A DNA stretch of 64,000 bases, taken from contig WQVN01000001.1 of NCBI GenBank assembly GCA_009785795.1, positions 25,487 through 89,486 of the forward strand, written 5' to 3'. Shown piece after piece: positions 9,519 through 64,000 of the stretch. Within the stretch, counting starts at the first letter, position 1; every line of letters begins with the position of its first letter. Below the pieces are notes generated by a model that saw only the letters and a list, made by a program, of their open reading frames with translations, ran no database searches and had not been told where the DNA came from. A program made the translations under genes and the position numbers. Source of the stretch: Coriobacteriia bacterium. Its GTDB lineage: Bacteria; Actinomycetota; Coriobacteriia; WRKU01; WQUG01.

Positions 9519-10211
9519 TGCCGTAGCTGCCTGTGCCACATTTAACGATTGAACCTTGCCAAGCTGAGGGAGCTTGACCAGAAAATCACAGTTATCTTTT
9601 ACCAGTCGCGACAGACCTTTATCCTCTGCCCCCATCACCAGGGCTATTCTGCCATTAAGTTGTGTATCCCATACCGCAGTTTTTGCATGTTCACTTGCCC
9701 CCGCTATCCAAAAATCAGCATCTTTTAGCTGCTGCAAGGTACGACTGATGTTGGTTACCTGCACTACAGGCAAGTGCGACAAGGCACCTGCGGCAGCCTT
9801 ATGTGCCGCAGGAGTAACGGCAGCAGCACGATCTTTTGCAACGATGAGACCTGCTGCGCCAAAAACTTCTGCACTGCGAGCAATGGCTCCCAGATTGCCA
9901 GGATCAGTAACGTGATCCAGCACAATTACCAGGGCATTGGATTGGCCTTCTACGTTTTGAACGACTTGATTCAAGGGTGAAAATTCAAATGGAGCAGTCC
10001 ATATCATTACGCCTTGATGTGCACCGTGCTCGCTGCGCTTGTCAAGGTCTGCGCGCGCAACGTACTGAGGCTTTATCTGTTGTTGCTGTAGATGCGCAAG
10101 GATCTCATCAGTATTTTTGCCTGGCTTGATACCACGCAACAGCATCGCACGCTGTACTTTTAGCCCCGAGCGCAGTGCTTCAAGGACTGCATTTCTTCCT
10201 TCAATACGCAT
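9477..10211 (-). CDS. rlmB: TrmH/SpoU-family RNA 2'-O-methyltransferase (RlmB-like).
   Basis: The ORF is 244 aa with a SPOUT fold (VLDHVTDPGNLGAIARSA) and an N-terminal substrate-binding domain. It sits immediately downstream of cysS, the usual cysS-rlmB pairing. Confidence 0.7.
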   Translation of the reverse strand: MRIEGRNAVLEALRSGLKVQRAMLLRGIKPGKNTDEILAHLQQQQIKPQYVARADLDKRSEHGAHQGVMIWTAPFEFSPLNQVVQNVEGQSNALVIVLDHVTDPGNLGAIARSAEVFGAAGLIVAKDRAAAVTPAAHKAAAGALSHLPVVQVTNISRTLQQLKDADFWIAGASEHAKTAVWDTQLNGRIALVMGAEDKGLSRLVKDNCDFLVKLPQLGKVQSLNVAQAATALMYEFSRQCEDGA

Positions 10212-11668
10212 TATCTTGCAACCAATTGCGGGCCTTGAGGAGTGTCTTTGATCGCATAGCCCAGTTGATCTAGTTCATCGCGAATTTCATCAGCGCGTGC
10301 CCAGTCCTTTGCTTCACGTGCCGCAGTACGTTCCTGCAGCAAGGCTTCTGCTTGTGGATTGCCTTTATCTGCCACATCATTTGCTACAAGTTGTATCCCC
10401 AATACATTAAACAGCTCCAGCAAGGTATCATGGGCAGATTGCAAGGAAAGGACTTCGTCTTCGTCAAGTGCCTCTGCTGCCGTATCGTCCAAAAAAGTAT
10501 TCATCTGACGAACTAAATCAAACAAGCTTGCCAACGCACCTGCCGCATTAAAGTCATCGTTCATTTCTCTGCGGAATTCGCTACCAGTCGCAACATATGC
10601 CGTTTGCAACACGGTAGACGCAGCACTAGGAAACATCTGCCTGCTACGCTTGCGCCAACTGGCAGGATTGCTTGATGCAGCAAGCACAAAAGTGGCACGA
10701 TCAACCAATGACTGAACGCGCTCTAAGCTTGTTGCGGCCTCTACAAGACGTGTGTCAGAAAAGTCCAAAGGACTACGATAGTGCGTCTGCAACATCAACA
10801 AGCGAATGACATTAGGATCATATTTTTTTAGCACATCATGTAGCAGCATAAAGTTACCCAGCGACTTGCTCATCTTTTCGCCTGAAGTTTGCAGCATGCC
10901 GCTGTGCATCCAGTAGTGTGCCATCTGCTTACCCGTGGCCGCCTCTGTCTGTGCTATTTCATTTTCATGGTGCGGAAAGACCAGATCAACACCACCACCA
11001 TGAATGTCAAAGGGAATGCCCAGTTCTGCATCACTCATAGCGCTGCATTCGATATGCCAACCTGGACGTCCCGCACCCCAGGGGCTATCCCAAGACGGCT
11101 CACCGGGTTTTGCGGACTTCCACAGCGCAAAATCTAAGGGGTCGTGCTTACTGTCGTCAAGATCCTTACGTACTCCATGTAGCAAATCATCAATATCGCG
11201 TCCCGACAACTTGCCATACTCTGGGAAAGAACGTACTGCAAAGTAGACATCACCATCTGCTGTTGCATAGGCATGGTCGCCTGCAATTAGCTGTTGGATG
11301 ATTTCAATCATTTCTGGAATCATCTGTGTCGCCTTTGGACGAATGTCGGGGTCTGCTACTCCCATCGCACGCATATCGGCAATAAAGGCATCTGTGTAAA
11401 ACTGCGCAACTTCATTAGGATTGCGTCCTTCCTCTGCTGCGCGCTGGATAATTTTGTCATCAATGTCGGTAATGTTCTGCACAAAGGCAACATCATAGCC
11501 ACTCCACTGCAGGTAGCGCCTAATAACATCAAAAGATAAAAAGGTACGTGCATTGCCAATATGAATGTAGTTATAGACAGTCGGTCCGCAGACATACATG
11601 CTGATTTTGCCGGAATTGCGCGGTTCAAATAGTTCTTTTTGTCTGCTGAGTGTGTTGTAAATTTTCAT
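10211..11668 (-). CDS. cysS: Cysteine--tRNA ligase.
   Basis: I see HIGNART and KMSKSLGN class-I motifs and Zn-binding cysteines. The track ORF extends to 11740, but I prefer the internal Met (MKIYNTLSRQ) at 11668. Confidence 0.88.
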   Translation of the reverse strand: MKIYNTLSRQKELFEPRNSGKISMYVCGPTVYNYIHIGNARTFLSFDVIRRYLQWSGYDVAFVQNITDIDDKIIQRAAEEGRNPNEVAQFYTDAFIADMRAMGVADPDIRPKATQMIPEMIEIIQQLIAGDHAYATADGDVYFAVRSFPEYGKLSGRDIDDLLHGVRKDLDDSKHDPLDFALWKSAKPGEPSWDSPWGAGRPGWHIECSAMSDAELGIPFDIHGGGVDLVFPHHENEIAQTEAATGKQMAHYWMHSGMLQTSGEKMSKSLGNFMLLHDVLKKYDPNVIRLLMLQTHYRSPLDFSDTRLVEAATSLERVQSLVDRATFVLAASSNPASWRKRSRQMFPSAASTVLQTAYVATGSEFRREMNDDFNAAGALASLFDLVRQMNTFLDDTAAEALDEDEVLSLQSAHDTLLELFNVLGIQLVANDVADKGNPQAEALLQERTAAREAKDWARADEIRDELDQLGYAIKDTPQGPQLVAR

Positions 11669-46113: not shown

Positions 46114-48105
46114 ATGTCCATAAACACGCCCGAAGACCGCGAACTCATACTGCGCGACAAAGCAGCGCGTGAAGGCTTCAATGTGCCACAAGATGTTATT
46201 GATTTTTTGGTCAACCGCTTTGACAGCGAGGTTGGACTAAAAAGCGCACTCATCAATATTGCAATGTTTGCGTCATATCGCTCAATCCCCATTAGTCTTG
46301 ATGTTGCAAAGCTCGTAATTGATGGTGAGAGAGTGCGTCCACTTTCTACGATGACCCCTGAATATGAAGCAGAGCGTGCCACTACATCTACAAGCGCGCC
46401 TGCTGAAAAGCGCGTACCTGCCACACCCATGCAGGCAGCAAGTGCAGCTCCAAAAACACCAGCAGCTTCAGCAGCATCACCGACCCCTAAGCTTGCTGCA
46501 ACACCCCCAGCTGTCAAATCAGAGCAGCAGGATGATCCTCCATCGCTCTTTGATTTGCCCATCCCTACGCCAGCACCTTCTGCACCACAGCCACAAGTTC
46601 CCGAACACGACCTTACAGCACCTTTCACGGTTCAACCTGCCCAGAAGGCTGCAACACCTGTCACCGAGCCTGCTGCATCTACAATACCTACACCAGAACA
46701 GGCACCTGTTGCTGCACCTATATCAGTAAGCCCTGAACCAACAACATCTGCACCTGCAAAACCAGCACCTGTAGCACGATTCTGCTCACAGACTGGTAAA
46801 CCTCTGAATCAGGAAACCACAGTACCGCCTACGCCAGTTGCGACGCCGGCTCCTGAACCAGTAGTGCCAATGCCGATGCCAACACCCGCTGTGCAGCAAG
46901 CTCAATACTTCCAGCCAATCAAAGAGGCTCCTCCCCAACAATCAGAAGCGCAAATGCGCCTTGTCTCGCAAACAGGAAGTGACGTGTTCTTTATTCCCTT
47001 GCGTACTCAGCGCAAGCGATCATTGTTTGAGCGCATCAATTTGGCACTTACTCGCGCCGGCATTGACGACGTGATTCAGGCAGACGACAAGGTCGCTGTT
47101 AAAATTCATTTTGGCGAAGAAGGCAACACTGGCTTTGTCAGTCCAGTCCATGCACGTAATGTAGTAAATCGTGTTAAAGAGTTGGGTGGAAAACCATTCC
47201 TCACTGACACAAACACGCTTTATGCAGGGCAGCGTCAAAACGCCATTGATCACATAAATTGTGCTATCGCAAATGGATTTGGCTATTCAACCGTAGGTGC
47301 GCCCATCATTATTGCAGACGGTCTGATTAGTCGCGATTCTGTTGTCGTGCCCGTCGCTGGTGGAAAACATTTCGAATCGGTGCGCGTTGCAAGTGCCACC
47401 ATAGATGCCGATGTCATGATTGTCATTAGTCACGTCAAGGGACACAGTCTAGCAGGCTTTGGCGGTGCGATCAAGAATATCGGTATGGGGTTGGGTTCGC
47501 GTAGCGCAAAGCAGCGCATGCATTCTGGCATCAAGCCAAGCGTTGTTCCCGATAATTGTACAGCCTGTGCTCGCTGCATTGACTGGTGTCAACCAAAGTG
47601 CATCACTATGGCACAGGGTCAGTCAGGAACACGCTACGCTCACATCAATCATGATGTATGCAATGGCTGTGGCGAATGTCTGACAGCTTGTGCCCATGGT
47701 GCGATTGCTATTAACTGGGACACCTCTCCTCAGGATTTCTTAGAGCGAACTGTTGAACATGCAGCAGGTGCGCTTGCGCACTTTAGTGCAAAAGAACAAA
47801 ACAAGGTCATCTACTTGAACTTTTTAACCAATATCACGCCAGACTGTGATTGCTGCACCTATTCCGATGCCCCCATCGTTGGCGATATTGGCATACTTGT
47901 TAGCTGCGACCCAGTTGCAATTGATCAAGCAGCCGTTGACTTGGTCGAACAAGCACAGGGCGCAAAAGACTCTGTTGGTGAAGACCTCAAGTGCGGTGAT
48001 GAAAAGTTTCAGGCAATCAATGACGTTGATGTTTCTTTGGCAATGCGCTATTCGCAACAACTAGGGCTCGGCTCACAAAACTACCGCCTGCGTACGATTA
48101 ACTGA
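46114..48105 (+). CDS. Fusion protein: DnaA-lid-like helical domain, a Pro/Ala/Thr-rich linker of about 220 aa, and a DUF362 domain with an inserted 2x[4Fe-4S] ferredoxin.
   Basis: An AGGAG RBS precedes the ATG. The N-terminus, ELILRDKAAREGFNVPQDVIDFLVNRFDSEVGLKSALINIAMFASY, resembles the DnaA/Hda AAA+ lid (compare the DnaA segment [33 protein letters not shown]). The C-terminus has CxxCxxCxxxC and CxxCxxCxxxC clusters embedded in a DUF362 core. Confidence 0.7.
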   Translation: MSINTPEDRELILRDKAAREGFNVPQDVIDFLVNRFDSEVGLKSALINIAMFASYRSIPISLDVAKLVIDGERVRPLSTMTPEYEAERATTSTSAPAEKRVPATPMQAASAAPKTPAASAASPTPKLAATPPAVKSEQQDDPPSLFDLPIPTPAPSAPQPQVPEHDLTAPFTVQPAQKAATPVTEPAASTIPTPEQAPVAAPISVSPEPTTSAPAKPAPVARFCSQTGKPLNQETTVPPTPVATPAPEPVVPMPMPTPAVQQAQYFQPIKEAPPQQSEAQMRLVSQTGSDVFFIPLRTQRKRSLFERINLALTRAGIDDVIQADDKVAVKIHFGEEGNTGFVSPVHARNVVNRVKELGGKPFLTDTNTLYAGQRQNAIDHINCAIANGFGYSTVGAPIIIADGLISRDSVVVPVAGGKHFESVRVASATIDADVMIVISHVKGHSLAGFGGAIKNIGMGLGSRSAKQRMHSGIKPSVVPDNCTACARCIDWCQPKCITMAQGQSGTRYAHINHDVCNGCGECLTACAHGAIAINWDTSPQDFLERTVEHAAGALAHFSAKEQNKVIYLNFLTNITPDCDCCTYSDAPIVGDIGILVSCDPVAIDQAAVDLVEQAQGAKDSVGEDLKCGDEKFQAINDVDVSLAMRYSQQLGLGSQNYRLRTIN

Positions 48106-48885: not shown

Positions 48886-50111
48886 AATACGCAATTGTAA
48901 TACTCGACGGAGCAGCTGACTACAAAATTGGACAGCTTAACAACAAGACTATTATTGAGGCTGCAACAACGCCCATTCTGGATATGATGGCACAACAAGG
49001 AATGGTAGGTCTTGCTCGCACTGTTCCAGAAGGCATGGAAGTATCCTCCAATGCAGCATGTACTTCAATTCTAGGTTATGACCCTGTTGCAAACTTCATT
49101 GGGCGCGGTGCTATTGAAGCTGCAGGACAGGGCATTGAACTTGCTCCTGACGAGATTGCCATGCGCATCAACACGCTAACTATTCTAGATGGCAACATGG
49201 CTAGCTATGCAGGCGGCAATATCTCTACTGCAGATTCCACTGCAATTGTCACGCGCCTTGCCGAACACCTTAATGACGACACTTTCACCTTTTATCCTGG
49301 CAAAGCCTATCGCCATATCTTGGTCGCCAAGGGATATCCAGAGGTAATGAACTTGAACTATACTCCCCCACACGACATTAGTGATATGCCCATTGGCCTT
49401 GATGAATTGCCAAATGGTCAAGGCGAAGATGCACGTCCACTACTCGAAATGATGGCACATGCTCATGAGATCTTGAAGGATGACCCCACGAATGCGCGCT
49501 TGGTTGAAGCGGGAGAGTTGCCCATTACCGATATCTGGCCTTTCTGGCCAGGCACTGCCTCGCAAAATCTGCAATCCTTCAAAGAAGCATATGGCTTACG
49601 AGCATCCATGACCAGCAGCGTTGACCTTTTGCGCGGTATGGCAGATCTTTTTGGCATCAACTTTTTAGAAATTGATGGCGTGACCGATGGCCTAGATAAT
49701 GATTTTGGTGCACAGGCTGACGGCGCTATTGATGCAATCAAGAATGACACTGCTGATCTGGTCATCATTCACGTCGAAGCTCCCGATGAGATGGGTCATC
49801 AAGGCGACATCGAAAAGAAGCTCAAAGCTGTTGAGCTTATTGACCACAAGATCATGAGCAGACTTTTTGCCTATGCCAAGCAACTTGAGTCAACAGAAGA
49901 TAGTCCAGGATTTCGCATTCTTGCCATGCCTGACCATTTCACCCCCATATCAAGCAGAACACACGAGGATGATCCCGTGCCCTTCTTAATCTGGGGTGAC
50001 GGCATCAAAGAAAATGGTGCCAGGGTCTACAGCGAAGAAGAAGCAATGCGCACAGGTCTTTTACTTGACCCCAACGGCTATGAGGTATTCAAGCTCTTAA
50101 CAGGCAGCTGA
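48882..50111 (+). CDS. apgM: 2,3-bisphosphoglycerate-independent phosphoglycerate mutase, archaeal-type.
   Basis: It belongs to the ApgM family (MKYAIVILDGAADY..., metalloenzyme domain). It overlaps the rsmI stop by 4 nt. Confidence 0.8.
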   Translation: MKYAIVILDGAADYKIGQLNNKTIIEAATTPILDMMAQQGMVGLARTVPEGMEVSSNAACTSILGYDPVANFIGRGAIEAAGQGIELAPDEIAMRINTLTILDGNMASYAGGNISTADSTAIVTRLAEHLNDDTFTFYPGKAYRHILVAKGYPEVMNLNYTPPHDISDMPIGLDELPNGQGEDARPLLEMMAHAHEILKDDPTNARLVEAGELPITDIWPFWPGTASQNLQSFKEAYGLRASMTSSVDLLRGMADLFGINFLEIDGVTDGLDNDFGAQADGAIDAIKNDTADLVIIHVEAPDEMGHQGDIEKKLKAVELIDHKIMSRLFAYAKQLESTEDSPGFRILAMPDHFTPISSRTHEDDPVPFLIWGDGIKENGARVYSEEEAMRTGLLLDPNGYEVFKLLTGS

Positions 50112-50150
50112 ACATTGCGCGTCGACCGATCAGAAAAGCGATAGTAACAC

Positions 50151-50561
50151 TCATAGCAGGTTCTCGCACCCGTTATTGCTTTTGCGTGGCAGATGGGACA
50201 TGTCTTCATTAGGTTCATGTTCTTCTCCTAATTTCGCGGTTATATTTTCAATATGGTCACCTACAAGCAACCATGCGTTTTTGCTTGCAGGTCGTTCAAG
50301 CACGCTATGCGTTTTGGGCGGACTTTGGCAGACACGATTCGGAACTACATTCCTGTACAACGCAATTACTTGTCCCTGCCTGTTTAAGAATGCGAGGTCA
50401 AGCGCATACTGCATGCCAAAGGTGTGTACTCCCTTACACGGAATTAGATGCAGCACATCGAAATTAAGCTGATGTTGTCTGGTGCCTAAAAGACCTTTCA
50501 TGCGTCCGTAATAACTGGTGACCGTCTTGACCTTCATGCATGTTTTATGTGTTCTGCTCAT
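50151..50561 (-). CDS. DUF192-family protein (COG1430) at the distal end of the Tad operon.
   Basis: The ORF is 136 aa and reads like DUF192 (CKGVHTFGMQYALDLAFL). Confidence 0.6.
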   Translation of the reverse strand: MSRTHKTCMKVKTVTSYYGRMKGLLGTRQHQLNFDVLHLIPCKGVHTFGMQYALDLAFLNRQGQVIALYRNVVPNRVCQSPPKTHSVLERPASKNAWLLVGDHIENITAKLGEEHEPNEDMSHLPRKSNNGCENLL

Positions 50562-50999
50562 TTATAGTCCTGTGCTCCAAAAAATGTTCAAACTTTTTTC
50601 GCGCGTCAGAAACTCTGGTGAGCTTGCAGCTGCACTTGCAAAAATGCGTGTCGCAAACAACTCGTATTCAAATGTAAAGTGCAGTGTTCTCTTTTGCAGA
50701 AATAGTTCACCGCTGCTCTCAACATGTACCTGAATCCTATAAGGACCTTTTGATCCTTTGTCATATCCCATAGCCTCATCAAGCACCTGACCTGCTATCG
50801 CTACCGGATCTTCACTCGATGTCACCAATGCGCGCGCAACTTCATTTACGGAACGATCAAAGCGTGCTGCCTCTGCAAAAAACATGCCCACATTCACTAT
50901 GATTGCTAACACTAGCAACACACAGGGGATCAGCATGACCAATTCTGCCGTCATCTGTCCGCACTCGCAGCGAAGCCGCTTCAAACAAGGCAACATCAT
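50562..50999 (-). CDS. TadE/TadF-like pseudopilin.
   Basis: Its N-terminus is GQMTAELVMLIPCVLLVLAII, the TadE-like signature. Confidence 0.65.
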   Translation of the reverse strand: MMLPCLKRLRCECGQMTAELVMLIPCVLLVLAIIVNVGMFFAEAARFDRSVNEVARALVTSSEDPVAIAGQVLDEAMGYDKGSKGPYRIQVHVESSGELFLQKRTLHFTFEYELFATRIFASAAASSPEFLTREKSLNIFWSTGL

Positions 51000-53140
51000 C
51001 GAAATCCCAGCGCGACGAAGAGTTCTTGCTCTCTGCCTCGAACAGACTCGAAAGCAGTGCTTGCCATATTTTGCACTGTCTGACTAAAGGGTAGTGGAAT
51101 ACTGACTCCCAATACGCGAACTTGCATCAGCTCTTCAATGCGACTACCAACATCTGCATCAAGTTCATTAATCATGCCACTTATAGCTTCGCGCATACCT
51201 GCAATTGAAGCACCTCCACTTTGCTCAAGCCCCTCTTTTGCTGTAGCAACCGATTGGACAAAGCTGCCTTCAAATCCTGACGCATTGATATCTCCAACAT
51301 CTGAAGTACTGACTAGTGTTGGCATAGGTCTACGCAAATCTGGAGCACTTATCTGAGCTGTATCAAAGAATGATCGTAGGCTGCTCGTTGCAATGCTGTC
51401 CAAGCCAAAAGGCAATCCCAGCATTAAGCGCTCAATTTGTGCACTGCCATCTGCATGCATCTGTAGGCAACTGCCCCAGATGCTTAAGGCAAATCCAATA
51501 ACCGATCCTGCAAAGCTATCATCCTCACCACCTAAAAGTTCATGTGTCACGCCTGCAAAGCCCTCTACTCCTGCACTATCTGCCATATCAGCAGACTGTG
51601 ACAACAAGCTGGGAATCGTTGACTCGCCACCTGATGGCATGAGGCGTGCACCTGCCATTGCCATCTGCCTACCTAAAACAACATCCTCGGAAGCGGTCAA
51701 AACTGGCAGTGTAAATGCTGGCAGTTCACGCTGCCCTGATGACACAACAACACAAATGTAGCCCCGCGCACCAGCAGGTGTGTAACTTAAGCGATTGCCT
51801 ATCAAAAATGATTTCGACTCTTCAAGCAATAAATCAAATGCATCCTGCGTTCTTTCACGAACCTGATCTTGTTCAAGCTCAATTGATTCTGTCGCCTGAT
51901 ACCACCAACGCAGTGCTGCTGCCTCAAAGTTCCAAGATTGGACGTACTCTGCCAATTGTTGTTCCCATACTTGCAAGGCGCGCCAATGCGGAGGTTCGCA
52001 CAATACGCAGGGTGGATGGTCAACATCACCAGCGACATAACTTAAGGTGCGCGTGCGCAATTCTGCTGTTGAGCCTGCAAGCCCAAAGCAATTCGGATTG
52101 CTGTGATATGCTCTACGATCACCATCAGCACGTTCTAGCACGTAGATGCGTTGTCCGCGTTCGCTACCAAGCAAGTCACTCATGCTAATATCTGCAACAT
52201 CGGCAGCCTCTGTCGCGGCCGCTCTATCTAAAATCACATGGACTTGTTCATCCACGGACTGTCCTATGCGACGATAGTCCTGCAGATAGCGCTCTTGCAG
52301 GCGGTCACGGTTAATCTGTGTGTTATCAATCGGCACAGGACCATCAATCACTGGTATTGACTGCGCCTGTAATTCTCCCCACCCGCGAGCAAAATCGTCA
52401 ATAGCAGACAAAGGATTCCAATGAGCCCTACTAGTTCCTGGCAGCAAAAAGACATTTAGTCGGAAACATTCATCAACGGCCGCCTCGACATCGCCCTCTA
52501 ATCGCTTGATTTCATGGGCAGACTCGGTATTTTCTTTGCCTGCCCTTGTCACTTCTTGTAGTAACTGGTCTGCATCACCAGAAGAATTTGTCAATTCAAC
52601 TTTTCCGCGCAAAGGAAAGGGTACTGCTATCGCTGTATAGGCTGTACCATTAAAGTCCCCCAACAGTCGCGAATTTTCCGTTGCCGAATAATAGCTGGTC
52701 GCCATTGCCAAATAAGGAGTTGCCTCGCTAACCACAGATGCCAACTGATAGGCATGTTGTGCAAATTCACGCCGCTTTTTGCAGTATCGATAATTGAAGT
52801 CAACTATCCGTTCAAGAAAAGGCGTCGCGGCCACACCTCCAACAGGTGCCGAAAGCACCGTTAGCAAGCCTGCCACAATCGTTATTGCATGAAGCACTAA
52901 TCCAAATAAATTTGCCGTAAGTAACATAGCATCGAGAGCTTGAATTAGCATGACAGACTGCGCTGTTACATCAGCTGCTGCCAAAGCCCCAATGTCTGCC
53001 ACAACTTGAATATCTGAAGAGGTCGAGTTTGTCCAGTACCACTGCACGCTGGATGCTAGTAACACCACACTGAGCATAATACCTAGCACCATCGTTAATG
53101 ATGTTGAACCTTCTTCATTTTTGAACCATGAAAGCCTCAT
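50996..53140 (-). CDS. Large (714 aa) TadG-like membrane-anchored protein.
   Basis: It has an N-terminal Tad_N-like segment (EEGSTSLTMVLGIMLSVVLLA) and a long soluble region with no other domain I recognise. Confidence 0.6.
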   Translation of the reverse strand: MRLSWFKNEEGSTSLTMVLGIMLSVVLLASSVQWYWTNSTSSDIQVVADIGALAAADVTAQSVMLIQALDAMLLTANLFGLVLHAITIVAGLLTVLSAPVGGVAATPFLERIVDFNYRYCKKRREFAQHAYQLASVVSEATPYLAMATSYYSATENSRLLGDFNGTAYTAIAVPFPLRGKVELTNSSGDADQLLQEVTRAGKENTESAHEIKRLEGDVEAAVDECFRLNVFLLPGTSRAHWNPLSAIDDFARGWGELQAQSIPVIDGPVPIDNTQINRDRLQERYLQDYRRIGQSVDEQVHVILDRAAATEAADVADISMSDLLGSERGQRIYVLERADGDRRAYHSNPNCFGLAGSTAELRTRTLSYVAGDVDHPPCVLCEPPHWRALQVWEQQLAEYVQSWNFEAAALRWWYQATESIELEQDQVRERTQDAFDLLLEESKSFLIGNRLSYTPAGARGYICVVVSSGQRELPAFTLPVLTASEDVVLGRQMAMAGARLMPSGGESTIPSLLSQSADMADSAGVEGFAGVTHELLGGEDDSFAGSVIGFALSIWGSCLQMHADGSAQIERLMLGLPFGLDSIATSSLRSFFDTAQISAPDLRRPMPTLVSTSDVGDINASGFEGSFVQSVATAKEGLEQSGGASIAGMREAISGMINELDADVGSRIEELMQVRVLGVSIPLPFSQTVQNMASTAFESVRGREQELFVALGFR

Positions 53141-53166
53141 GATTACTGCACCATCCTTATCTGTCC

Positions 53167-53757
53167 TTACCTATTAGGAACAAACCCGAACTGTTGGGGA
53201 GCATTCTGTGGTGTCCCTTCAACCCCTTGTTGTGTGCCACGCACGACAGCATGACCAGTGACTTCAACATTCTGATTTATGCTTGCTCCTACTAAAAATC
53301 CCATCAATGGCAATGGTTCTTGCTTTAGCGAAACACTTACTTCTATGACTTCTGAGCGCGAATTGCCACTAACCTCAACCTGCAATGTTCCGGGAATCCA
53401 AAAAGCATCGCCCCTCGGCAGACCCGCTAATCTATCTGCTGCATAACTGTGCAATAATCCGTCCTGTCCATGACCTGTTTCTTCGTCTTTTGTCGCCACA
53501 ATTCGACCAATTCCTACCGCGACCTGTCCCAATGTCATCTGTGTGTATAAATAGATAGCAGGCTGTATCATCATTAGGATAAGCACGCACATGATTAGGA
53601 TGACCCAGGGCAACTCTGCAAGAGCTTGTCCTTTTTCATTTTGTCGCAGCTTTGCAAGAATCTGCCCTTTAGCGTCTTGCCATAACTTTATACAGGTCTG
53701 TCCGTTTTCGCGCCGTACTTTAAACGAAACTAGTGCATGATTAGATCCTTTAGCCAT
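53167..53757 (-). CDS. tadE: TadE-like pseudopilin.
   Basis: It has GQALAELPWVILIMCVLILMMIQ. Its N-terminal leader contains a short duplicated KGQxLAxL unit. Confidence 0.65.
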   Translation of the reverse strand: MAKGSNHALVSFKVRRENGQTCIKLWQDAKGQILAKLRQNEKGQALAELPWVILIMCVLILMMIQPAIYLYTQMTLGQVAVGIGRIVATKDEETGHGQDGLLHSYAADRLAGLPRGDAFWIPGTLQVEVSGNSRSEVIEVSVSLKQEPLPLMGFLVGASINQNVEVTGHAVVRGTQQGVEGTPQNAPQQFGFVPNR

Positions 53758-53951
53758 TGACCACTAACCCCCGTTCCTGCAGGTGGCAATGAATAAGGTG
53801 CATGTAGGTACGTTCGCGAACTGTGCGTATCTGCATTGGACTCTGCTGCACTAAAATAGCTGAGCAAGGCTGCCCCAGCCAGCACCACAGCAAGGCTCAC
53901 AAGCAGCGCAATAACATACTCTGCATTCGCCTGCCCACTTTCATTGCGCAT
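53730..53951 (-). CDS. flp: Flp-family pilin or pseudopilin (second copy).
   Basis: It has the G/QANAEYVIALLVSLAVVLAG Flp prepilin motif. Its start overlaps the stop of the upstream flp in a TGATG junction. Confidence 0.6.
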   Translation of the reverse strand: MRNESGQANAEYVIALLVSLAVVLAGAALLSYFSAAESNADTHSSRTYLHAPYSLPPAGTGVSGQWLKDLIMH

Positions 53952-54145
53952 CACGCAATGCCGCCCAATTGACTGGTTATGCTTTCCCACACATTTACCA
54001 GTTGCTCATGAAACGCAATCGCTAGAATGATGCAAGCAATCACAATGACCGCTAGAATAATGACGTACTCTGAAACCCCTTGTCCGCAGTCCTTGCGCAC
54101 ATAACTCAAGCCTCTTGCCATGCAACTCAAAACCATATCTCTCAT
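53951..54145 (-). CDS. flp: Flp pilin.
   Basis: The ORF is 64 aa. It has the Flp prepilin motif G/QGVSEYVIILAVIVIA followed by a hydrophobic helix. Confidence 0.75.
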   Translation of the reverse strand: MRDMVLSCMARGLSYVRKDCGQGVSEYVIILAVIVIACIILAIAFHEQLVNVWESITSQLGGIA

Positions 54146-54273
54146 AAAGCTTTCCTCTCATCTTATTGTTATGACTACCTAACCAGCTTTGATGCTTCTG
54201 ATGAATGAACATTGTTTCTGAAAGCAACGTGCAGCACCTATACGTAAGGCTTCAAGAACAACACTCGGCTTCA

Positions 54274-55089
54274 TCAGAAATTGCCCATTCCGGTTAGAAC
54301 TTGTGCCATGATTGGTCCCATCAGCAAGATTAATACTGCTGGTACGATGCATAAGCCTAGCGGAGCCAGAATTTTCACGGGAGTCTTTGCAATGCGCTCT
54401 TCGAGGCGTGCAATACGATATTCGCGCACATCCCGAGAAAAGGTTCCCAGCACAGTTCCCAGTGGTGAGCCCAGAGAAAATGCCTGACGTAAAGCATTCA
54501 CAAATCGCAGTACCGCCTCTTCCTGTAGTGAGTCTGCAAGCTGTTCAAAGGCCTTCATGCGCGAAAGCATTCCTGCCTGATACACCTGCTCTGCGCGACG
54601 AAACTCGTCTGCAAGTGGCGTATCATAGCGCGATAAATACCAGTCAAAAGCCTGGTCAACAGACAATCCTGCACCCAAAGCAAGCAGCAAAATATCAATC
54701 ATCTCGGGCAAGTCGTTTACACAACTATCGCGCAAAGCCTGTGCCTGTCGCTGCTCTATCTTCGATACAATAGGTTTCGCAAATACGCGGACTACAGGAA
54801 GCTCAACCGCTACATTTATTGCCTGATTCAAGCTATTTATTGCATCAGAAAAACCTGCAACACTCACGCCTCTGTCCTGCTTGACTTTGTGTACGGTAAG
54901 CACAGCACCATTACTGTCAATGCTTCCTATTCCCTTAAGGTCATGCAAGCTCTTGCGCTGTTTGCGCGTATGACTTTCGTCAAATTGAAACAGACAGTAT
55001 GCCATCATGCTGACAAGCACAGCTACAGCACTTACGCATATAAGACCCAAAATAAGACCTTGGATCTCTAGATTCGTCAGACTAAACAT
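54274..55089 (-). CDS. tadC: Tad pilus inner-membrane platform protein TadC (T2SSF domain).
   Basis: It has the T2SSF fold with TM helices. Confidence 0.75.
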   Translation of the reverse strand: MFSLTNLEIQGLILGLICVSAVAVLVSMMAYCLFQFDESHTRKQRKSLHDLKGIGSIDSNGAVLTVHKVKQDRGVSVAGFSDAINSLNQAINVAVELPVVRVFAKPIVSKIEQRQAQALRDSCVNDLPEMIDILLLALGAGLSVDQAFDWYLSRYDTPLADEFRRAEQVYQAGMLSRMKAFEQLADSLQEEAVLRFVNALRQAFSLGSPLGTVLGTFSRDVREYRIARLEERIAKTPVKILAPLGLCIVPAVLILLMGPIMAQVLTGMGNF

Positions 55090-56173
55090 GGATATTTACC
55101 ACCGAGCGAACCCATAAGAATCCAACAACTACCAATCCTATCGCCAGAACAAACAGCATTTGTCCTCCCGCAGTGCTTAGCCACAAACCCAAATATCCTG
55201 GCATCATCAGTGAGAGTAGCCCAATCAAGATAAAGGGAATGCTGCCCACTAAACGCACAGAGCTTCTTCCCTGTGCCGTTTGAACCTTTAGCTTCTTGTT
55301 CAGCATCAAATCCTGCCGAATGGAGGTCGCCAGCTCTTCAAGTAACGCAGGGGCACTTCCTCCAATTTGGGCAGTAATATCTATGACCGCTGCCACTGAT
55401 TTAAGTTCGCGGAGTTCTGTTGCACCTGCCATATCATGTAAACTTTTTGAATAATTGCGCCCTAAGCTTGCATCTGCATCAAGGCGTCGCAGCACATCAA
55501 TTGTCGGACTATCTTCACTTTGCCCATCAAGAACAAAACGTAATGCCTGTGAAAACGATCTGCCAGCACGCAAGGATTGTGCTAGTTCATCCAACATGTC
55601 AGGAATTGCTGCACGTAGTGCCTGGCGTCGCCCATCTGCACAAGCCTGCACATAAACCAAGCTACCTATCACCATAAGCACAGCCATAGCAATGGATAAC
55701 AAAGGTGAGCCTAGGGCAACACCCAGTATCATGAACAACAGCAGAACAGCAAGCCACCATTGCAAAACAGCCTCGATATGCTCTACAAAGCCTGCTTGTT
55801 CCAACAATCGCAAGAATCGTCTGCCTGCAACACTATGCTCGCACAATGTTCGGCATGGTCCACTTGTCTTACTCCCCCACAGGGGACGCTTCCACAGGGA
55901 TAAAGTTACACCTTCTCTGCTGCCTGTTTCACTATTAGCAAGCATTGCCTCTGAAGCTATTTTGCCTTGCAGGCGCAGGCGCAATTGCTGCTCATCGCGC
56001 TGTGCTTGTGCTACATCAAAAAGCATTGACGCGAGGGTACTAACCGCGTACCAAGTGCAACCCACCGCACATGCAGCAACGGTAATCCAAAAGAACTGTG
56101 CCAGTACTCCATTCAGCACTCCAAGCTCAAGATTAAGCATGTGCAATCTCCTCTCGCCACAGTGCAAGTTCAT
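55082..56173 (-). CDS. tadB: Tad pilus inner-membrane platform protein TadB (T2SSF domain).
   Basis: It has the T2SSF fold and overlaps tadC and tadA. Confidence 0.75.
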   Translation of the reverse strand: MNLHCGERRLHMLNLELGVLNGVLAQFFWITVAACAVGCTWYAVSTLASMLFDVAQAQRDEQQLRLRLQGKIASEAMLANSETGSREGVTLSLWKRPLWGSKTSGPCRTLCEHSVAGRRFLRLLEQAGFVEHIEAVLQWWLAVLLLFMILGVALGSPLLSIAMAVLMVIGSLVYVQACADGRRQALRAAIPDMLDELAQSLRAGRSFSQALRFVLDGQSEDSPTIDVLRRLDADASLGRNYSKSLHDMAGATELRELKSVAAVIDITAQIGGSAPALLEELATSIRQDLMLNKKLKVQTAQGRSSVRLVGSIPFILIGLLSLMMPGYLGLWLSTAGGQMLFVLAIGLVVVGFLWVRSVVNIHV

Positions 56174-57491
56174 TAGAGTCTGTTACATTTTGAACAAGCA
56201 GCGAATCAACAAAAGTTGGCACTGCAAGGAATCTTGACTGTCCCAATACTGCACCATCATCACCCATTCCTGTCTGTTCAAAACAGTAGATTGGGCGCAA
56301 GTAATATCCTTGCTTACGCCTTGTAGCAATATCGTGCACGTTGTCAGCATGAACAGAATCTGCCACTTTGCTGTCATCACCATTCGACTGGCCATCATCT
56401 GTGCACAGCTCTACCACTTCAATTATTCGGCGTTTGCCATCAGAACAGCGTTGTACATGCACTATAAGATCAAGAGCAGCAGCAATTTGCGCCTCGATTT
56501 GTGTCTGCGATTGATTTGTTCCATAGCCAACCATAGTAATGAGCCTTGTAATAACCTCATGTGGAGTATTCGCATGAAGCGTCGTCAGTGAACCATCATG
56601 TCCCGTATTCATTGCTTGCAGCATTTCGAGTGCTTCAGCGCCACGTACCTCGCCCACAACAATGCGATCAGGACGCATACGCAAGCTATTAATTACCAAG
56701 TCGCGCATGGATATCTCACCCTGCCCTTCAAGATTTGGCGGACGTGCTTCTAAGCGCAGTACATGCGGATGTGCAGAAAATTTCAATTCCGCAGAATCCT
56801 CAATAGTGATAATGCGTTCATCTGCAGGAATTTCTAAAGACAGGGCATTAAGTAATGTTGTCTTGCCACTGCCCGTTCCCCCACTGACAGCAATATTCTG
56901 TCCACTTGCAACGGCCCAACTAAGCAGAGTCGCCAGCCGTGCATCAACACTATTCATCGTCGCTAGCTCATTTAGTGAAAAGGTAAAATCGCTAAACTTG
57001 CGAATTGTCAACAAAGGCCCACTTAGAGACACCGGTGGTATTATCGCGTTAACACGATGCCCTGCAGCAAGACGCCCATTGACCATAGGATTTTGTTCGT
57101 CAATGCGTCGTCCGATAGGCGATATTATTCGGTCAATTGCAGTACGCAACTGCTCTTCACTGCCATAACTATCGGGACTTAAGATTATCTTGCCCTCGCG
57201 CTCAAAGAATATCCTGTCCTCACCATTTACCATGATTTCTGTGACACTGGGATCTGCAAGGAGTGAATCAATGACGCCCAATCCCAGCACTTCACTTGCC
57301 GTAAGTGCGACTAATCTATCACGCTGTTCTCGTGACTTAAATCGTACAGATCCTGTCTGCGCAAGCCTGCGTAAAACTTCTTCAACTTCTTTTCGTGCCA
57401 TGTCGCTATCTGCTTTTAGCAGCGCAGCAATGCGCTCAGGACTGAAAATTTGATACAGTTCGGACTTAAGCTGTTCGATATTCTGGCGCAC
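56133..57491 (-). CDS. tadA: Tad secretion ATPase TadA/CpaF.
   Basis: It has a GGTGSGKTTLLNALS Walker A motif and belongs to the VirB11/CpaF family. Confidence 0.9.
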   Translation of the reverse strand: MRQNIEQLKSELYQIFSPERIAALLKADSDMARKEVEEVLRRLAQTGSVRFKSREQRDRLVALTASEVLGLGVIDSLLADPSVTEIMVNGEDRIFFEREGKIILSPDSYGSEEQLRTAIDRIISPIGRRIDEQNPMVNGRLAAGHRVNAIIPPVSLSGPLLTIRKFSDFTFSLNELATMNSVDARLATLLSWAVASGQNIAVSGGTGSGKTTLLNALSLEIPADERIITIEDSAELKFSAHPHVLRLEARPPNLEGQGEISMRDLVINSLRMRPDRIVVGEVRGAEALEMLQAMNTGHDGSLTTLHANTPHEVITRLITMVGYGTNQSQTQIEAQIAAALDLIVHVQRCSDGKRRIIEVVELCTDDGQSNGDDSKVADSVHADNVHDIATRRKQGYYLRPIYCFEQTGMGDDGAVLGQSRFLAVPTFVDSLLVQNVTDSNELALWREEIAHA

Positions 57492-58917
57492 GACGCAACA
57501 ACCCCCTTTGCCCTTTCTCTTTTCTGGTCAGCCTTCTATTGCCAGTTTCGCCAGATGCAATTGTTCTTTTCGCTGATAAAAGTCGTGTTCCGCCCTCACG
57601 ACGCATCGCATGACGAACTGCAGCCGTATCATGCAAGACTAAATCACTGCGCACTGCAAGTTCATCCAAGATGCCCATAATCTCTGCTGTCAAAGTGCTG
57701 TTCTGAAAGGCCTTATCTATCTGGCCACTATCAAGACTTACCGCAAGTTCACGTCCCGAATCGTGTATGCACATCACTTTATCGACCAGTAAAACTTCTG
57801 CAACCTCTTGCGCGCGAAGTCCCGATTGTTGCATACGGTTCATCACAAACAGCAGTCGTGAAACTGGTATGCCTAGCCTGCGGCACAAGTCCTTCAATTT
57901 GGCAGTTGCTCGCACTCCTACCACAGATTGATCAAAAACACAGATAGCAATATCACTGTGTTCGAGCAATTCCCCATGAAATAGCGTCCAGTAGGCACCT
58001 GTATTCACAACAATCAATTCATAATCATGACGCAGACGCTCTAATGCTGCAGGTAAGACCTGCGCTAGAGCCTCAGCTTTTTCAGGAATTGCACGAGGAG
58101 CATATAACGACAGATTTGATGCGAGCTGCCTGCCAAATCTACGATGAGCATTCTGCTCTGCCCCATTGCTTACAGTTAGCGCTTCGAAAAGTTCAGAAAG
58201 ATCACAGCTCTCGTCTGCAAAAGTTTCATGTATACGCTGTTTTCCTGTAGAGCCAAATAAAAATCCCAAATCACCAAATTGCAAATCAAGGTCAAGTACA
58301 GCCGTATTAATATTCATCTGAGCAGCCAGGTAAGCAAGTGCGCAGCTAATCGTTGATCTGCCTGCACCACCGCGCGCACCGATCAAAGGAACAACTACTG
58401 CCCTATGTACATCCTTGTCACTAGAAGGCGATATCTGTACCGCCCCATTTCCAGCGCTAACAGCACTGGCCGATTCAGTCAAGCGCTCAAGCAGAAGTTC
58501 AAGTTCTGTCACAGATGCTTGACGTGAAATGGTCGCCCTAGCACCCGCAAGCATTGCCCGTTGAACATAGTCAACGTCATTGACCTCAGTCACCACAATA
58601 ATTCCCAGATTAGGGTGTGACAGGCGAATGGCATCACACAAGTTCAAAGGTGAAATATCAGAAATTAGCTTGTCAATAATTACTATTCGCTGCGTTGTTG
58701 GATCATCAAGTGCAAGCGCGCGAAAACATTCAGCGCCACTGCGAAAAGTATGCACTAAGCGCACTGCGCCATTGGTCATAAGTCCCGCAACCTCAAGAGG
58801 AAAATGTTTGTCCGAACTTACAACTGTCAGCACGTCCAACATAATCTTACTCATCCAATTCCGTATCATCTGCTGTGAATGCAGCTGCTGGCAAAACCAA
58901 ATGGATTGCACCTGCAC
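57466..58917 (-). CDS. tadZ: TadZ/CpaE: a receiver-like domain fused to a MinD/ParA-type ATPase.
   Basis: It has a deviant Walker A motif, GARGGAGRST, and an N-terminal pseudo-receiver domain. Confidence 0.8.
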   Translation of the reverse strand: MQVQSIWFCQQLHSQQMIRNWMSKIMLDVLTVVSSDKHFPLEVAGLMTNGAVRLVHTFRSGAECFRALALDDPTTQRIVIIDKLISDISPLNLCDAIRLSHPNLGIIVVTEVNDVDYVQRAMLAGARATISRQASVTELELLLERLTESASAVSAGNGAVQISPSSDKDVHRAVVVPLIGARGGAGRSTISCALAYLAAQMNINTAVLDLDLQFGDLGFLFGSTGKQRIHETFADESCDLSELFEALTVSNGAEQNAHRRFGRQLASNLSLYAPRAIPEKAEALAQVLPAALERLRHDYELIVVNTGAYWTLFHGELLEHSDIAICVFDQSVVGVRATAKLKDLCRRLGIPVSRLLFVMNRMQQSGLRAQEVAEVLLVDKVMCIHDSGRELAVSLDSGQIDKAFQNSTLTAEIMGILDELAVRSDLVLHDTAAVRHAMRREGGTRLLSAKRTIASGETGNRRLTRKEKGQRGLLRRAPEYRTA

Positions 58918-59644
58918 GCGCCGCTGTTAGAACTTGCTCGACTTGCGCATCTGGGATAGCGAGTGTGACCCAAGTAATAGACTCATTGCCACTTTGCATT
59001 CTATTGGTACCACTGCTTGCACTGCCACCAATCAGTGTTGTCCGTCCATCACTCACATCATCGCTGGCAGCAGCATTTTCTCTTCCCATCTGCACTGCAG
59101 ATGTGTTTGCGGACAACACCTCAATACTGTGCGCTAATTCCTCTACACGACCGTTGGGTACCGCTGCCATTAGGCTTAAATGCATGCCACGTACTAATTC
59201 TCCGCCTAATGCATGAACATTGTCTGTTGACAGGGTAACTGCAGTCATTCCTTCAGCAAGACGATCCAATGGGAGAGCCTGGTCAAATATGCGCGCTTTT
59301 GTCGCCACTTCCCCTGCCAATATGACTGCACTTGTTCTGTGGCCTTCAATGCGCTCATAATCCTGTGCTGCTATAGCTCCTTCTGGCAAATATATCTGCG
59401 GCCACAGCTGCTGTTCAAACAAGTGGCTCGTCAGTACCGTACCCACATCAATTTGCTCGCGGGCGACCAACACTTGCTGCAATTCGCCATCAAATTGCTC
59501 AATAGCTTCTGCACGAGCATTGCTCGCAGATTGCGCATAGCTAAACAGAAAAAGTCCTGCGCACAGTGCTCCAATCAACCCAGCACCCATCGATGCAATT
59601 AACTTCCTGTTCTGTTTCACCTTGTTCCTCCTCGCGCAAAGCAT
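58847..59644 (-). CDS. cpaB: Flp pilus assembly protein CpaB/RcpC (SAF domain).
   Basis: It has an N-terminal TM helix and a SAF-like domain (EQIDVGTVLT). Confidence 0.75.
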   Translation of the reverse strand: MLCARRNKVKQNRKLIASMGAGLIGALCAGLFLFSYAQSASNARAEAIEQFDGELQQVLVAREQIDVGTVLTSHLFEQQLWPQIYLPEGAIAAQDYERIEGHRTSAVILAGEVATKARIFDQALPLDRLAEGMTAVTLSTDNVHALGGELVRGMHLSLMAAVPNGRVEELAHSIEVLSANTSAVQMGRENAAASDDVSDGRTTLIGGSASSGTNRMQSGNESITWVTLAIPDAQVEQVLTAARAGAIHLVLPAAAFTADDTELDE

Positions 59645-62247: not shown

Positions 62248-63840
62248 TTAATCTTGATATCCTGGACTCAATAAGCTGTTTAAGAAGCCCAATATTCCCG
62301 ATTCACTGTTGTCAACTTGGCCGTGTGTGATGTAGTGTTGCGAGATGATAAATCCATTTGGCACTTCGTCACTATTATCTGCGTGACAACGAGCACAGAA
62401 TAGCTCTCCCAAATCATCACGAGTCGGCTCTGGATCGCCACCCAAGCCATCTGAATCTACCAGACCCAATAAAGCTATGTCATGGTCTGGTGATCTATGT
62501 GGCCAGTCGCTATCAGGTGCCACACGTGCATAGTCAGCAGTACCAAAGTGACAGCTTGAACATGCAAGATTAATTGCCTGCTGCGCCCGCATTTCAGCAT
62601 CAGTACCTGAATCAAGTGCGAAATAGCCTAGTGCGCGGAATGCTGCAAGTTCTGCAACCTGAGGGTTTTCAGCATCGGCAATAGGCACAATGCCATTAGA
62701 ATCCCATTCTGCTGTATGCGATCCACTCAGGTCACCACGATGGCAAGTATAGCACTGAGCTGGTCCCGAATAAGCACCATTCCAGATAACTGGATGTGCT
62801 CCCTCAATAGGCTCATCTTCTAGATCAGTCGCAAAATCGCCCACATGAACATCAGTGGCATCAGTCAAGATAAATTCGTTCAACTCTCTCGGATCACCAT
62901 TCGGCACAAGAGGTTCTGGTTCTGCTGCGAGTAGATTGTGACAACTCGCACACCACACACCAAGAGTATATTGATTAATCTGATAGCTCTCGATTGCTGG
63001 TTCATCTGGCAGATCGTCAATACTTACTGGAACATTTCCTGTGCCACCTGGATCCTTGCGAAGCAGCTTATAGCCTATTTGATCTGTTGTTTCATTATTC
63101 TCAAATTGACCAGCATCAACGAAGTCTTCTCCAGTAATCGGATCTGTTACGCCACCTGTCCAGAAATCGGCAGGCATCCACGAAGCAAAGTTTCCACCAT
63201 GCACAACATGACATGTTGCACAGGTCATATCAATAGTTCCCACGTCAGAAGTGGAAGTAGGAATTTGTCTGTTTAATCCAAGGGAATGTCCAGAATCAAG
63301 GTCGGTAATCTCACTAGTGCCACCAGTAACGCCACCGTGATACACAAGATTTGAGCTCATGCCTGCAGCACCAACAGGAGATCCTGTTAGGTGACAGTAT
63401 TCGCAGCCCGTTGAACCTCGACGCGTCAACCAGTTATTTGTTCTGGTCGCACTTGCAAGTCCCGTGGATGGCTCGGTCACCTGCGCACTATGAGCCGAGT
63501 GACACACGCTACACTTTGCTGATGTTGTTGTGTAGCCACCATGAGGGCCACGACCCTGTAGTTCAAATTCCCCCAGTGTAGGTCCTCCAAGCAACACATA
63601 TTCGTTGCCATCACTCGGAAAGAGCAGTTCGCCACCCGGTCCGACTGCTGCATTAGAGCCAAAATCTGCCGGCTCACTGAACATGCGCGGTGCAGGAACC
63701 AAGCTGGCACCACTTGCGCTCAATCCAGATATCGATAATTCGTTGGCGTCTGCAGCAAATGCAGGTGTAGCAACCAACACAGTTGCACACGCAGTAAGTA
63801 CGAGCGCAGTTCCAAATCGTCCAATTCGCTTAATCTTCAT
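62248..63840 (-). CDS. Secreted heptahaem c-type cytochrome.
   Basis: It has a signal peptide (ALVLTACATVLVATPAFA/AD) and seven CxxCH motifs: CSVCH, CEYCH, CATCH, CASCH, CYTCH, CSSCH and CARCH. The start is trimmed to MKIKRIG after an AAAGGA RBS. Confidence 0.8.
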   Translation of the reverse strand: MKIKRIGRFGTALVLTACATVLVATPAFAADANELSISGLSASGASLVPAPRMFSEPADFGSNAAVGPGGELLFPSDGNEYVLLGGPTLGEFELQGRGPHGGYTTTSAKCSVCHSAHSAQVTEPSTGLASATRTNNWLTRRGSTGCEYCHLTGSPVGAAGMSSNLVYHGGVTGGTSEITDLDSGHSLGLNRQIPTSTSDVGTIDMTCATCHVVHGGNFASWMPADFWTGGVTDPITGEDFVDAGQFENNETTDQIGYKLLRKDPGGTGNVPVSIDDLPDEPAIESYQINQYTLGVWCASCHNLLAAEPEPLVPNGDPRELNEFILTDATDVHVGDFATDLEDEPIEGAHPVIWNGAYSGPAQCYTCHRGDLSGSHTAEWDSNGIVPIADAENPQVAELAAFRALGYFALDSGTDAEMRAQQAINLACSSCHFGTADYARVAPDSDWPHRSPDHDIALLGLVDSDGLGGDPEPTRDDLGELFCARCHADNSDEVPNGFIISQHYITHGQVDNSESGILGFLNSLLSPGYQD

Positions 63841-64000
63841 AGTCCTTTGCCTGCTTCTTAAGCCATGCTCCATCAATAATCCATCGCGTAGTCATATAAA
63901 AATCATACAATCCTACCCGTACAATAATACAATACCGCGGCTAAATATGATAGTTTTACTCTAAAAAAGTGCTGGACTGTCGTGAATTTCGAGGCAATCC

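Follow-up and report, generated by a model that had tools for sequence, protein, structure and literature searches.

A Tad pilus locus and its conserved accessory genes in a Coriobacteriia bacterium

Introduction

Tad (type IVc) pili are major factors in bacterial colonization and biofilm formation, and the components of the machinery that assembles them are regarded as mostly known, TadZ and TadA being the only cytoplasmic ones. In Bifidobacterium breve UCC2003, the genes reportedly run tadZ-tadA-tadB-tadC-flp-tadE-tadF, and tadV lies at another site, as is usual among actinobacterial Tad loci. A 2025 genome paper describes tad operons of Bulleidia extructa and Helcococcus ovis that carry, at the 3′ end, genes for a DUF192 protein of 112 amino acids (aa) and for a coiled-coil protein, with no function assigned (PMC12786226). 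Here, we analyze a stretch of 64,000 nucleotides (hereafter the window) from the chromosome of an uncultured Coriobacteriia bacterium (assembly GCA_009785795.1, contig WQVN01000001.1, forward-strand positions 25,487 to 89,486), in which the minus strand carries a Tad locus that also includes a DUF192 gene.

We consider it probable that this locus is an intact chromosomal operon for a monoderm Tad pilus, joined to a conserved set of three accessory genes whose products likely face the cytoplasm: a 714-aa protein, the DUF192 protein, and a small zinc-ribbon protein. Literature searches on COG1430/UPF0127, the DUF192 family, found no papers, and searches on Tad in Coriobacteriia or Eggerthella found nothing relevant; the broad linkage of DUF192 to Tad loci and the Coriobacteriia-wide family of the 714-aa protein appear essentially undescribed in the searchable literature.

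Results

Organization and gene content of the locus

Between 50078 and 59644 on the minus strand lie 12 intact, tightly packed open reading frames (ORFs) in the order cpaB-tadZ-tadA-tadB-tadC-flp-flp-tadE-(about 700 aa)-tadE-DUF192-zinc ribbon. ORFs were assigned with Pfam and NCBIfam, and pilin-like genes left without an assignment were named from their motifs; likely starts and junctions follow the gene-caller starts on a public contig identical to the window, ENA k141_279463 (109.5 kb) of ERZ27257300; these starts differ slightly from the longest ORFs for cpaB (59620), tadZ (58854), tadB (56140), and flp2 (53951). From cpaB to the zinc-ribbon gene, the junction distances are −8, −26, −8, −8, +128, −1, −28, +26, −4, 0, and −68 nucleotides (nt): 8 of the 11 junctions overlap, tadE2 abuts the DUF192 gene, and gaps occur between tadC and flp1 (+128) and between tadE1 and the 714-aa gene (+26). 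These distances make it reasonable to read the 12 genes as one operon. No tandem repeats of note were detected at the DNA level, and outside the locus the window holds ordinary housekeeping genes (RecG, DegV, FakA, CysS, CoaBC, GroEL, RpsA).

The original prediction, made from the sequence alone, had described a secretin-less, Gram-positive-type Tad/Flp locus with two flp genes, and domain matches, processing motifs, and conserved synteny all agree with that description. Its eleven ORFs are present on the minus strand at the coordinates given below; its remark that almost all junctions overlap, consistent with one operon, holds apart from the two gaps and the one abutting pair; and none of the ORFs is interrupted. 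The same 12-gene order recurs, at 40–70% protein identity and with differing flanking genes, in metagenome-assembled genomes (MAGs) of Coriobacteriia and Actinomycetes. The closest relatives are MAGs with isolate names such as Lab288, Emb289, Th196, Md513, and Cf509, a naming that suggests termite-gut MAG series. Raoultibacter (including the cultured R. massiliensis), Eggerthellaceae, and Atopobiaceae share the overall layout, with genes that are extra or were undetected by tblastn.

The cpaB/rcpC-like gene (58847..59644, minus strand, as are all genes of the locus; likely start 59620, 257 aa) encodes an N-terminal membrane anchor followed by SAF and RcpC domains (Pfam RcpC 3.6e-9, SAF 0.0026; NCBIfam TIGR03177 1.8e-18). 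The tadZ/cpaE-like product (57466..58917; likely start 58854, 462 aa) combines a receiver-like N-terminal domain with a ParA/MinD ATPase. It matches Response_reg (8.4e-7), AAA_31, CbiA, and, weakly, TadZ_N (0.0044) in Pfam, and the NCBIfam model CpaE_hom_Actino at 2.4e-18, under its equivalog cut-off; the receiver plus ParA/MinD architecture of TadZ/CpaE is thus present, with single scores near or under cut-offs. The secretion ATPase TadA/CpaF (56133..57491; 452 aa) matches T2SSE at 1.8e-56, and its best NCBIfam match is the TadA-family model TIGR03819 (1.1e-93; 314 bits vs. a cut-off of 373). The platform proteins TadB (55082..56173; likely start 56140, 352 aa) and TadC (54274..55089; 271 aa) both match T2SSF above its cut-off (4.2e-11 and 1.6e-11, respectively), as two paralogous platform proteins.

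Two prepilin genes follow. The flp1 gene (53951..54145) encodes 64 aa with the site G/QGVSEY, a predicted mature pilin of about 43 aa, and a weak Pfam Flp1_like match (0.016). The flp2 gene (53730..53990; probable start 53951, 73 aa) has the site G/QANAEY and a conserved C-terminal tail, ..TYLxAPYxLP..QWxKDLIxH, that is absent from flp1; in the homologs from loci L001, L002, L006, L008, and L010 (numbering of our survey), the tail reads ..TYL(H/R)APY(S/T)LP...(Q/E)W(L/A)KDLI(M/I)H. In this lineage, the tailed flp2 products thus seem to form a conserved class of pilin in their own right. The first TadE-like pseudopilin, TadE1 (53167..53757; 196 aa), has a 43-aa leader and the site G/QALAEL, and its homologs retain G/QAL[AV]E. 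Its leader (53629–53757, minus strand) contains three successive G-Q-x-x-x-x-L units (NGQTCIKL, KGQILAKL, KGQALAEL), the last of which alone has Glu at +5; no corresponding tandem repeat was detected in the DNA. The second, TadE/F-like pseudopilin, TadE2 (50562..50999; 145 aa), has the site G/QMTAEL and a Pfam TadE match at 2.5e-4 (21.5 bits vs. a cut-off of 22.9), while flp1, flp2, tadE1, and the 714-aa gene have no above-threshold Pfam or NCBIfam family. Loss of the G/xxxxEY site from the pilins would have spoken against a working locus; a class-III site, G/xxxxE(Y/L), occurs in all four pilin-like products and is kept in homologs from eleven related loci.

As originally predicted, the 64-kb window contains neither a secretin (RcpA/CpaC; Pfam search of large and membrane ORFs) nor an A24 prepilin peptidase (TadV/CpaA; inspection of ORFs with multiple transmembrane segments, a GxGD motif scan, and Pfam). 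The former is expected to be absent because the host is a monoderm. No A24 peptidase was found within 10 kb of related loci L001, L002, and L004 either. TadV would have to be encoded elsewhere, and prepilin processing is predicted. The DUF192 protein, with its conserved Cys, His, and Asp, was entertained as a substitute prepilin peptidase and set aside: it is soluble, without a membrane segment, and the one annotated diderm locus that carries a DUF192 gene (L025, described below) is a complete canonical Tad locus.

Association of DUF192 with Tad loci

The DUF192 gene (50151..50561) encodes 136 aa without a signal peptide, as compared with 98–116 aa in its homologs. The match to PF02643 (COG1430) reaches 1.9e-6 (28.3 bits vs. 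a cut-off of 27; relatives score 50–58 bits), and the top Foldseek matches of its AlphaFold model (predicted local distance difference test, pLDDT, 77) are 3pjy and 3m7a (probability 1.0, E about 1e-4). In this genome only, the ORF is about 25 residues longer than in homologs, the extension is modeled at low confidence, and the ORF overlaps the start of the zinc-ribbon gene by 68 nt (50151–50218); the DUF192 stop codon may have shifted recently.

A scan with a motif of this DUF192 subfamily, using one genome per GTDB species, returned 80 loci, 70 of them with at least 3 kb of upstream sequence. In 61 of these 70 informative loci, which span ten or more phyla and include loci with a secretin, tadA-tadB-tadC immediately precede DUF192, with tadA on the same strand at a distance of 1.8–6.6 kb. 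For carriers other than Coriobacteriia, the end of tadA and DUF192 are a nearly constant ~2.0 kb apart, and DUF192 therefore sits directly after tadC there. Carriers include Achromobacter, Bordetella, Pseudomonas, Geobacter and its relatives, Nitrospirota, Gemmatimonadota, Acidobacteriota, Bacteroidota, Verrucomicrobiota, KSB1, and a Dethiobacter. A fully annotated Geobacter MAG locus (L025) reads TadE-RcpC-secretin-TadG-TadZ-TadA-TadB-TadC-DUF192-GT87. For the reverse sample, 80 metagenome loci found through TadA were searched with a hidden Markov model of the DUF192 subfamily, which was detected in 13 of the 37 loci with at least 3.5 kb downstream (about 35%) and in 8 of the 20 with 7 kb or more. 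The search pattern and the ranking by similarity to the query bias both samples, which are best read as indicating that the association is common, not universal. The original prediction had listed DUF192 as the last gene among the unusual parts of the locus and proposed a survey of co-occurrence with Tad operons; from these two counts, the pairing is instead widespread and has been overlooked. In three TadA-anchored metagenome loci (L090, L114, L122), DUF192 lies less than 350 nt from the end of the tadA match, not after tadC.

The window protein carries the subfamily residues R12, G15, C34, H38, D47, and E81. In the sample independent of the search pattern, Tad-linked copies have R12, G15, H38, D47, and E81 in common, and usually C34; His38 is present in every Tad-linked copy that spans the site, and a DUF192 protein of the same sample that is not linked to Tad lacks the His. 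In monoderms and diderms alike, the domain of the Tad-linked form starts directly at the N-terminus, with no signal peptide. The structures 3pjy (Sinorhizobium meliloti) and 3m7a (Novosphingobium aromaticivorans), neither of which is, to our knowledge, known as Tad-linked, share with it the fold and the core motif T-x-x-M ... LD. In 3m7a, however, the domain begins near residue 45 of the chain rather than directly at its start, and Ala occupies the position of His38. The 3pjy protein has been described as a "hypothetical signal peptide protein" (PMC12786226).

In five loci, DUF192 is fused to a multi-pass, PEMT/ICMT-like membrane methyltransferase directly after tadC (L012, 6558–7589; L014, 2556–3533; L024, 8348–9325; L031 and L035, both 9962–10939); the hosts are MAGs of Cytophagia, KSB1, and unclassified bacteria. 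A GT-C glycosyltransferase gene (PMT_2/TMEM260-like or GT87) comes next after DUF192 in several loci of Desulfobacterota and Nitrospirota. Large multi-pass proteins follow DUF192 in L020 (10293–11579) and L025 (10378–11748), as well as in L017, L028, L032, and L037, all Tad loci of Geobacter, Nitrospirae, or Thermodesulfovibrionales; two of these proteins are GT-C glycosyltransferases. Pilin glycosylation is possible at these loci of other phyla, judging from such neighbors.

The zinc-ribbon gene

The original prediction had placed DUF192 last in the operon; one further gene comes after it. This ORF (50078..50218), with an AGGAG ribosome-binding site upstream, encodes a 46-aa protein, MNLMKTCPIC...CYEC, whose two CxxC knuckles (CPIC-x11-CYEC) are conserved in 11 relatives and are predicted to bind metal; the Pfam match to Zn_ribbon_3 (0.0014) is under the cut-off. 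A zinc ribbon follows DUF192 in L001, L002, L006–L008, L010, L019, L022, L033, L034, L042, and L053. The version in L022, from an Atopobiaceae MAG, is joined to an FHA domain (1.7e-12), which would indicate a role for the zinc ribbon as a cytoplasmic adaptor or regulator. In two loci, the genes for the second pseudopilin and the zinc ribbon flank one for a protein of 181–210 aa that has a membrane helix at its N-terminus (L089, 9205–9750; L033, 9303–9935). In L089, this 181-aa protein takes the place of DUF192 and the zinc ribbon is kept; in R. massiliensis (L033), it precedes DUF192. NCBIfam holds no specific family for the zinc-ribbon, DUF192, or 714-aa proteins.

The 714-aa protein family

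The 714-aa protein (50996..53140), a member of an unnamed family, is encoded between the two pseudopilin genes. It consists of a first membrane helix at about residues 13–34 (Tad_N-like), a second hydrophobic segment at about 72–98, and a long, mostly helical remainder. The 32 relatives recovered by a word-based search are without exception unnamed proteins of Coriobacteriia or Actinomycetes MAGs. With an exhaustive profile search, the family grows to at least 264 clusters (50% identity), of which 74 match at E ≤ 1e-30; almost every one is about 700 aa long. Members with taxon names are all Coriobacteriia or Actinomycetes, and the few named proteins are called "hypothetical protein."

The domain search and structure prediction that the original prediction had suggested for this protein were both carried out. 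Beyond the N-terminus, neither a vWA domain nor any other above-threshold Pfam domain was found in the protein or its family members. The AlphaFold model (pLDDT 76.6; predicted template modeling score 0.65) is dominated by long helices, with few small sheets; Foldseek of this model against the PDB gave no match (best E 0.38), and a profile search of PDB sequences gave nothing meaningful. At the N-terminus, PF13400 (Tad) matches 17 of 68 diverse family members (best E 2.4e-6). The window protein has no PF13400 match at E ≤ 1, and its motif GSTSL...IQVVADIGALAAAD resembles the model by eye. Invariant residues of the family cluster in or near the membrane part (G11, Q45, D49, D70), and H346, C351, C378, and C381 are near-invariant; this H-C-C-C motif suggests a zinc site.

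Other genes in the window

At 62248–63876 (minus strand), 2.6 kb upstream of the pilus operon, an ORF encodes a secreted 542-aa protein with seven CxxCH heme-binding motifs and a weak MtrC/MtrF-like match (3.2e-7); a putative multiheme cytochrome in a monoderm Coriobacteriia bacterium hints at extracellular electron transfer. At 46114–48105 (plus strand), a 663-aa protein combines a DUF362 domain and 4Fe-4S clusters with an unusual architecture, in which a Pro/Ala/Thr-rich linker of about 250 aa and a short N-terminal Hda-lid-like stretch precede the domain.

Discussion

Proposed roles of the core and accessory genes

The core of the mechanism proposed here is drawn from homologous families, and both the membrane topology and every function given for the three accessory genes are predictions that build on the observed gene content, motifs, and synteny. 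TadZ would position the machine, and the TadA ATPase would power a TadB/TadC membrane platform that polymerizes Flp1 and perhaps the tailed Flp2, once TadV had cleaved their leaders at G/xxxxEY. The two TadE-like pseudopilins may prime the fiber, and the membrane-anchored CpaB may line its route through the cell wall. Of the accessory proteins, the 714-aa protein could serve as a scaffold or coupling factor for the platform; PodJ and TipN, the membrane-anchored coiled-coil polarity proteins that organize Caulobacter pili, offer a loose functional analogy. DUF192, the one accessory protein common to many Tad loci, lacks a signal peptide and would act at the cytoplasmic face on TadB/TadC, on TadA, or on the prepilin; it may help to mature or modify the pilin, a role hinted at by the ICMT/PEMT-like fusions and the adjacent GT-C genes. 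The zinc-ribbon protein may be an adaptor or regulator, its FHA-fused form providing a tie to regulation.

More broadly, we tentatively propose, with the odds somewhat against it, that the signal-less, His-bearing DUF192 is an overlooked cytoplasmic part of about one third of Tad machines, and that in Coriobacteriia it works together with a zinc-ribbon adaptor and a membrane-anchored, cytoplasmic 700-aa scaffold derived from a TadG-like anchor.

Alternative interpretations

Several observations weigh against the reading of an intact pilus operon with a cytoplasm-facing accessory set. The scan for consensus promoters and terminators returned results at or below chance, and the window holds no A24 peptidase; about two thirds of the Tad loci sampled, as well as the related Coriobacteriia-type locus L089, have no DUF192, which is therefore not essential to Tad machines in general; and the links to methyltransferases and glycosyltransferases come from other phyla, not from the window locus. 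The topology of the 714-aa protein is predicted only from hydrophobicity and the positive-inside rule. The pattern is consistent across 68 family members: the hydrophobic segments number just two, and the 32-residue loop that separates them contains a median of 1 lysine or arginine (K/R) and 3 aspartates or glutamates. The median rises to 4.5 K/R in the 35 residues past segment 2, and 97% of members carry more K/R there than in the loop. On account of this distribution, we lean toward an N-in/C-in hairpin with a body of roughly 600 aa in the cytoplasm, the opposite of classical TadG. The same protein could instead be a true TadG-type giant minor pilin or tip adhesin, with its body outside and residues 72–98 buried in the fold or fiber. 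Its gene occupies the usual TadF/TadG slot between pseudopilins, which favors an extracytoplasmic role; the N-terminus is PF13400-like in a quarter of relatives; AlphaFold draws residues 12–97 as one continuous helix, like an extended pilin alpha-1 helix; and no more than 65% of members have a segment 2 that scores as inserting into the membrane, the Hessa-scale value being marginal in a third. Against this, 4–8 K/R follow segment 2 directly, as compared with 0–2 in the loop, in 97% of the 68 members; no vWA or other adhesin domain and no structural match was recovered; and the invariant G11-S-T-S-L has no Glu at +5, unlike the four processed pilins. The near-invariant H/C/C/C set also points to zinc binding, a property commoner among cytoplasmic proteins, though this is not decisive. 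We therefore consider an external, TadG-type protein unlikely. The "TadG-like" label of the original prediction accordingly stands for the Tad_N-like anchor, at the level of the family, and not for the body, which has no vWA domain and is predicted to be cytoplasmic.

Two further alternatives concern the output of the machine and the membership of the operon. Tad-like competence pili have reportedly been described for Micrococcus luteus, and the gene content of the window locus fits an apparatus for DNA uptake or protein secretion as well as it fits an adhesive pilus; moreover, simple adhesion leaves the conserved, tailed Flp2 and the large accessory protein unexplained. However, no comEA/comEC-like or DNA-processing genes were found beside the operon, whether in the window or in relatives, and the locus lies among housekeeping genes, such that a machine devoted mainly to uptake or secretion is improbable. 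It is more improbable still that the DUF192 and zinc-ribbon genes are unrelated passengers downstream of a pilus operon. Neither has a known function, L089 keeps the zinc ribbon without DUF192, and most sampled Tad loci do without DUF192; but the same-strand place after tadC or the pseudopilins recurs in ten or more phyla, the junctions to the respective upstream gene are 0 and −68 nt, and both genes stay in place while the flanking genes vary between relatives. A Tad pilus operon that includes its accessory genes remains the reading we prefer.

Significance

On its own, the locus adds little beyond the indication that a termite-gut-like lineage can probably make Tad pili; its value lies in the conserved, uncharacterized accessory genes as testable leads rather than in the locus as such. 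That many phyla encode a small cytoplasmic protein directly after tadC suggests that the machine, or the maturation of its pilin, involves a component still missing from the list. Its carriers include cultured Achromobacter and Bordetella, genera with human pathogens, as well as relatives of Geobacter (here as MAGs only) and gut Coriobacteriia. The 714-aa family, without a known fold relative, would be a lineage-specific Tad component of Coriobacteriia, including the cultured, human-associated Raoultibacter.

Comparison with described systems

Like the Bifidobacterium breve UCC2003 locus, the window locus has no secretin; it shares with that system tadZABC, flp, pseudopilins, G/xxxxEY sites, and a peptidase encoded outside the operon. 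Unlike it, the window locus begins with cpaB, has a tailed flp besides the first one and the 714-aa gene between its pseudopilin genes, and ends with DUF192 and the zinc ribbon. The diderm Tad/Cpa systems of Aggregatibacter and Caulobacter (flp-tadV-rcpCAB-tadZABCDEFG) share homologs of TadZ, TadA, TadB, TadC, Flp, TadE/F, and RcpC/CpaB; in contrast to these systems, the window locus is without the RcpA secretin, RcpB, the TadD pilotin, tadV, and a vWA-bearing TadG. The Gram-positive tad operons of Bulleidia extructa and Helcococcus ovis resemble the window locus in that a 3′ DUF192 gene adjoins a large coiled-coil gene, but place tadV first, have a separate TadG, and have no zinc ribbon reported (PMC12786226). 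Their coiled-coil protein, encoded by the last gene, is SMC-like by HHpred (PMC12786226), and we liken it to the 714-aa protein by description only. Set beside these systems, the locus belongs to the Tad family and, within it, to the secretin-less type of actinobacteria, which is a kind already known.

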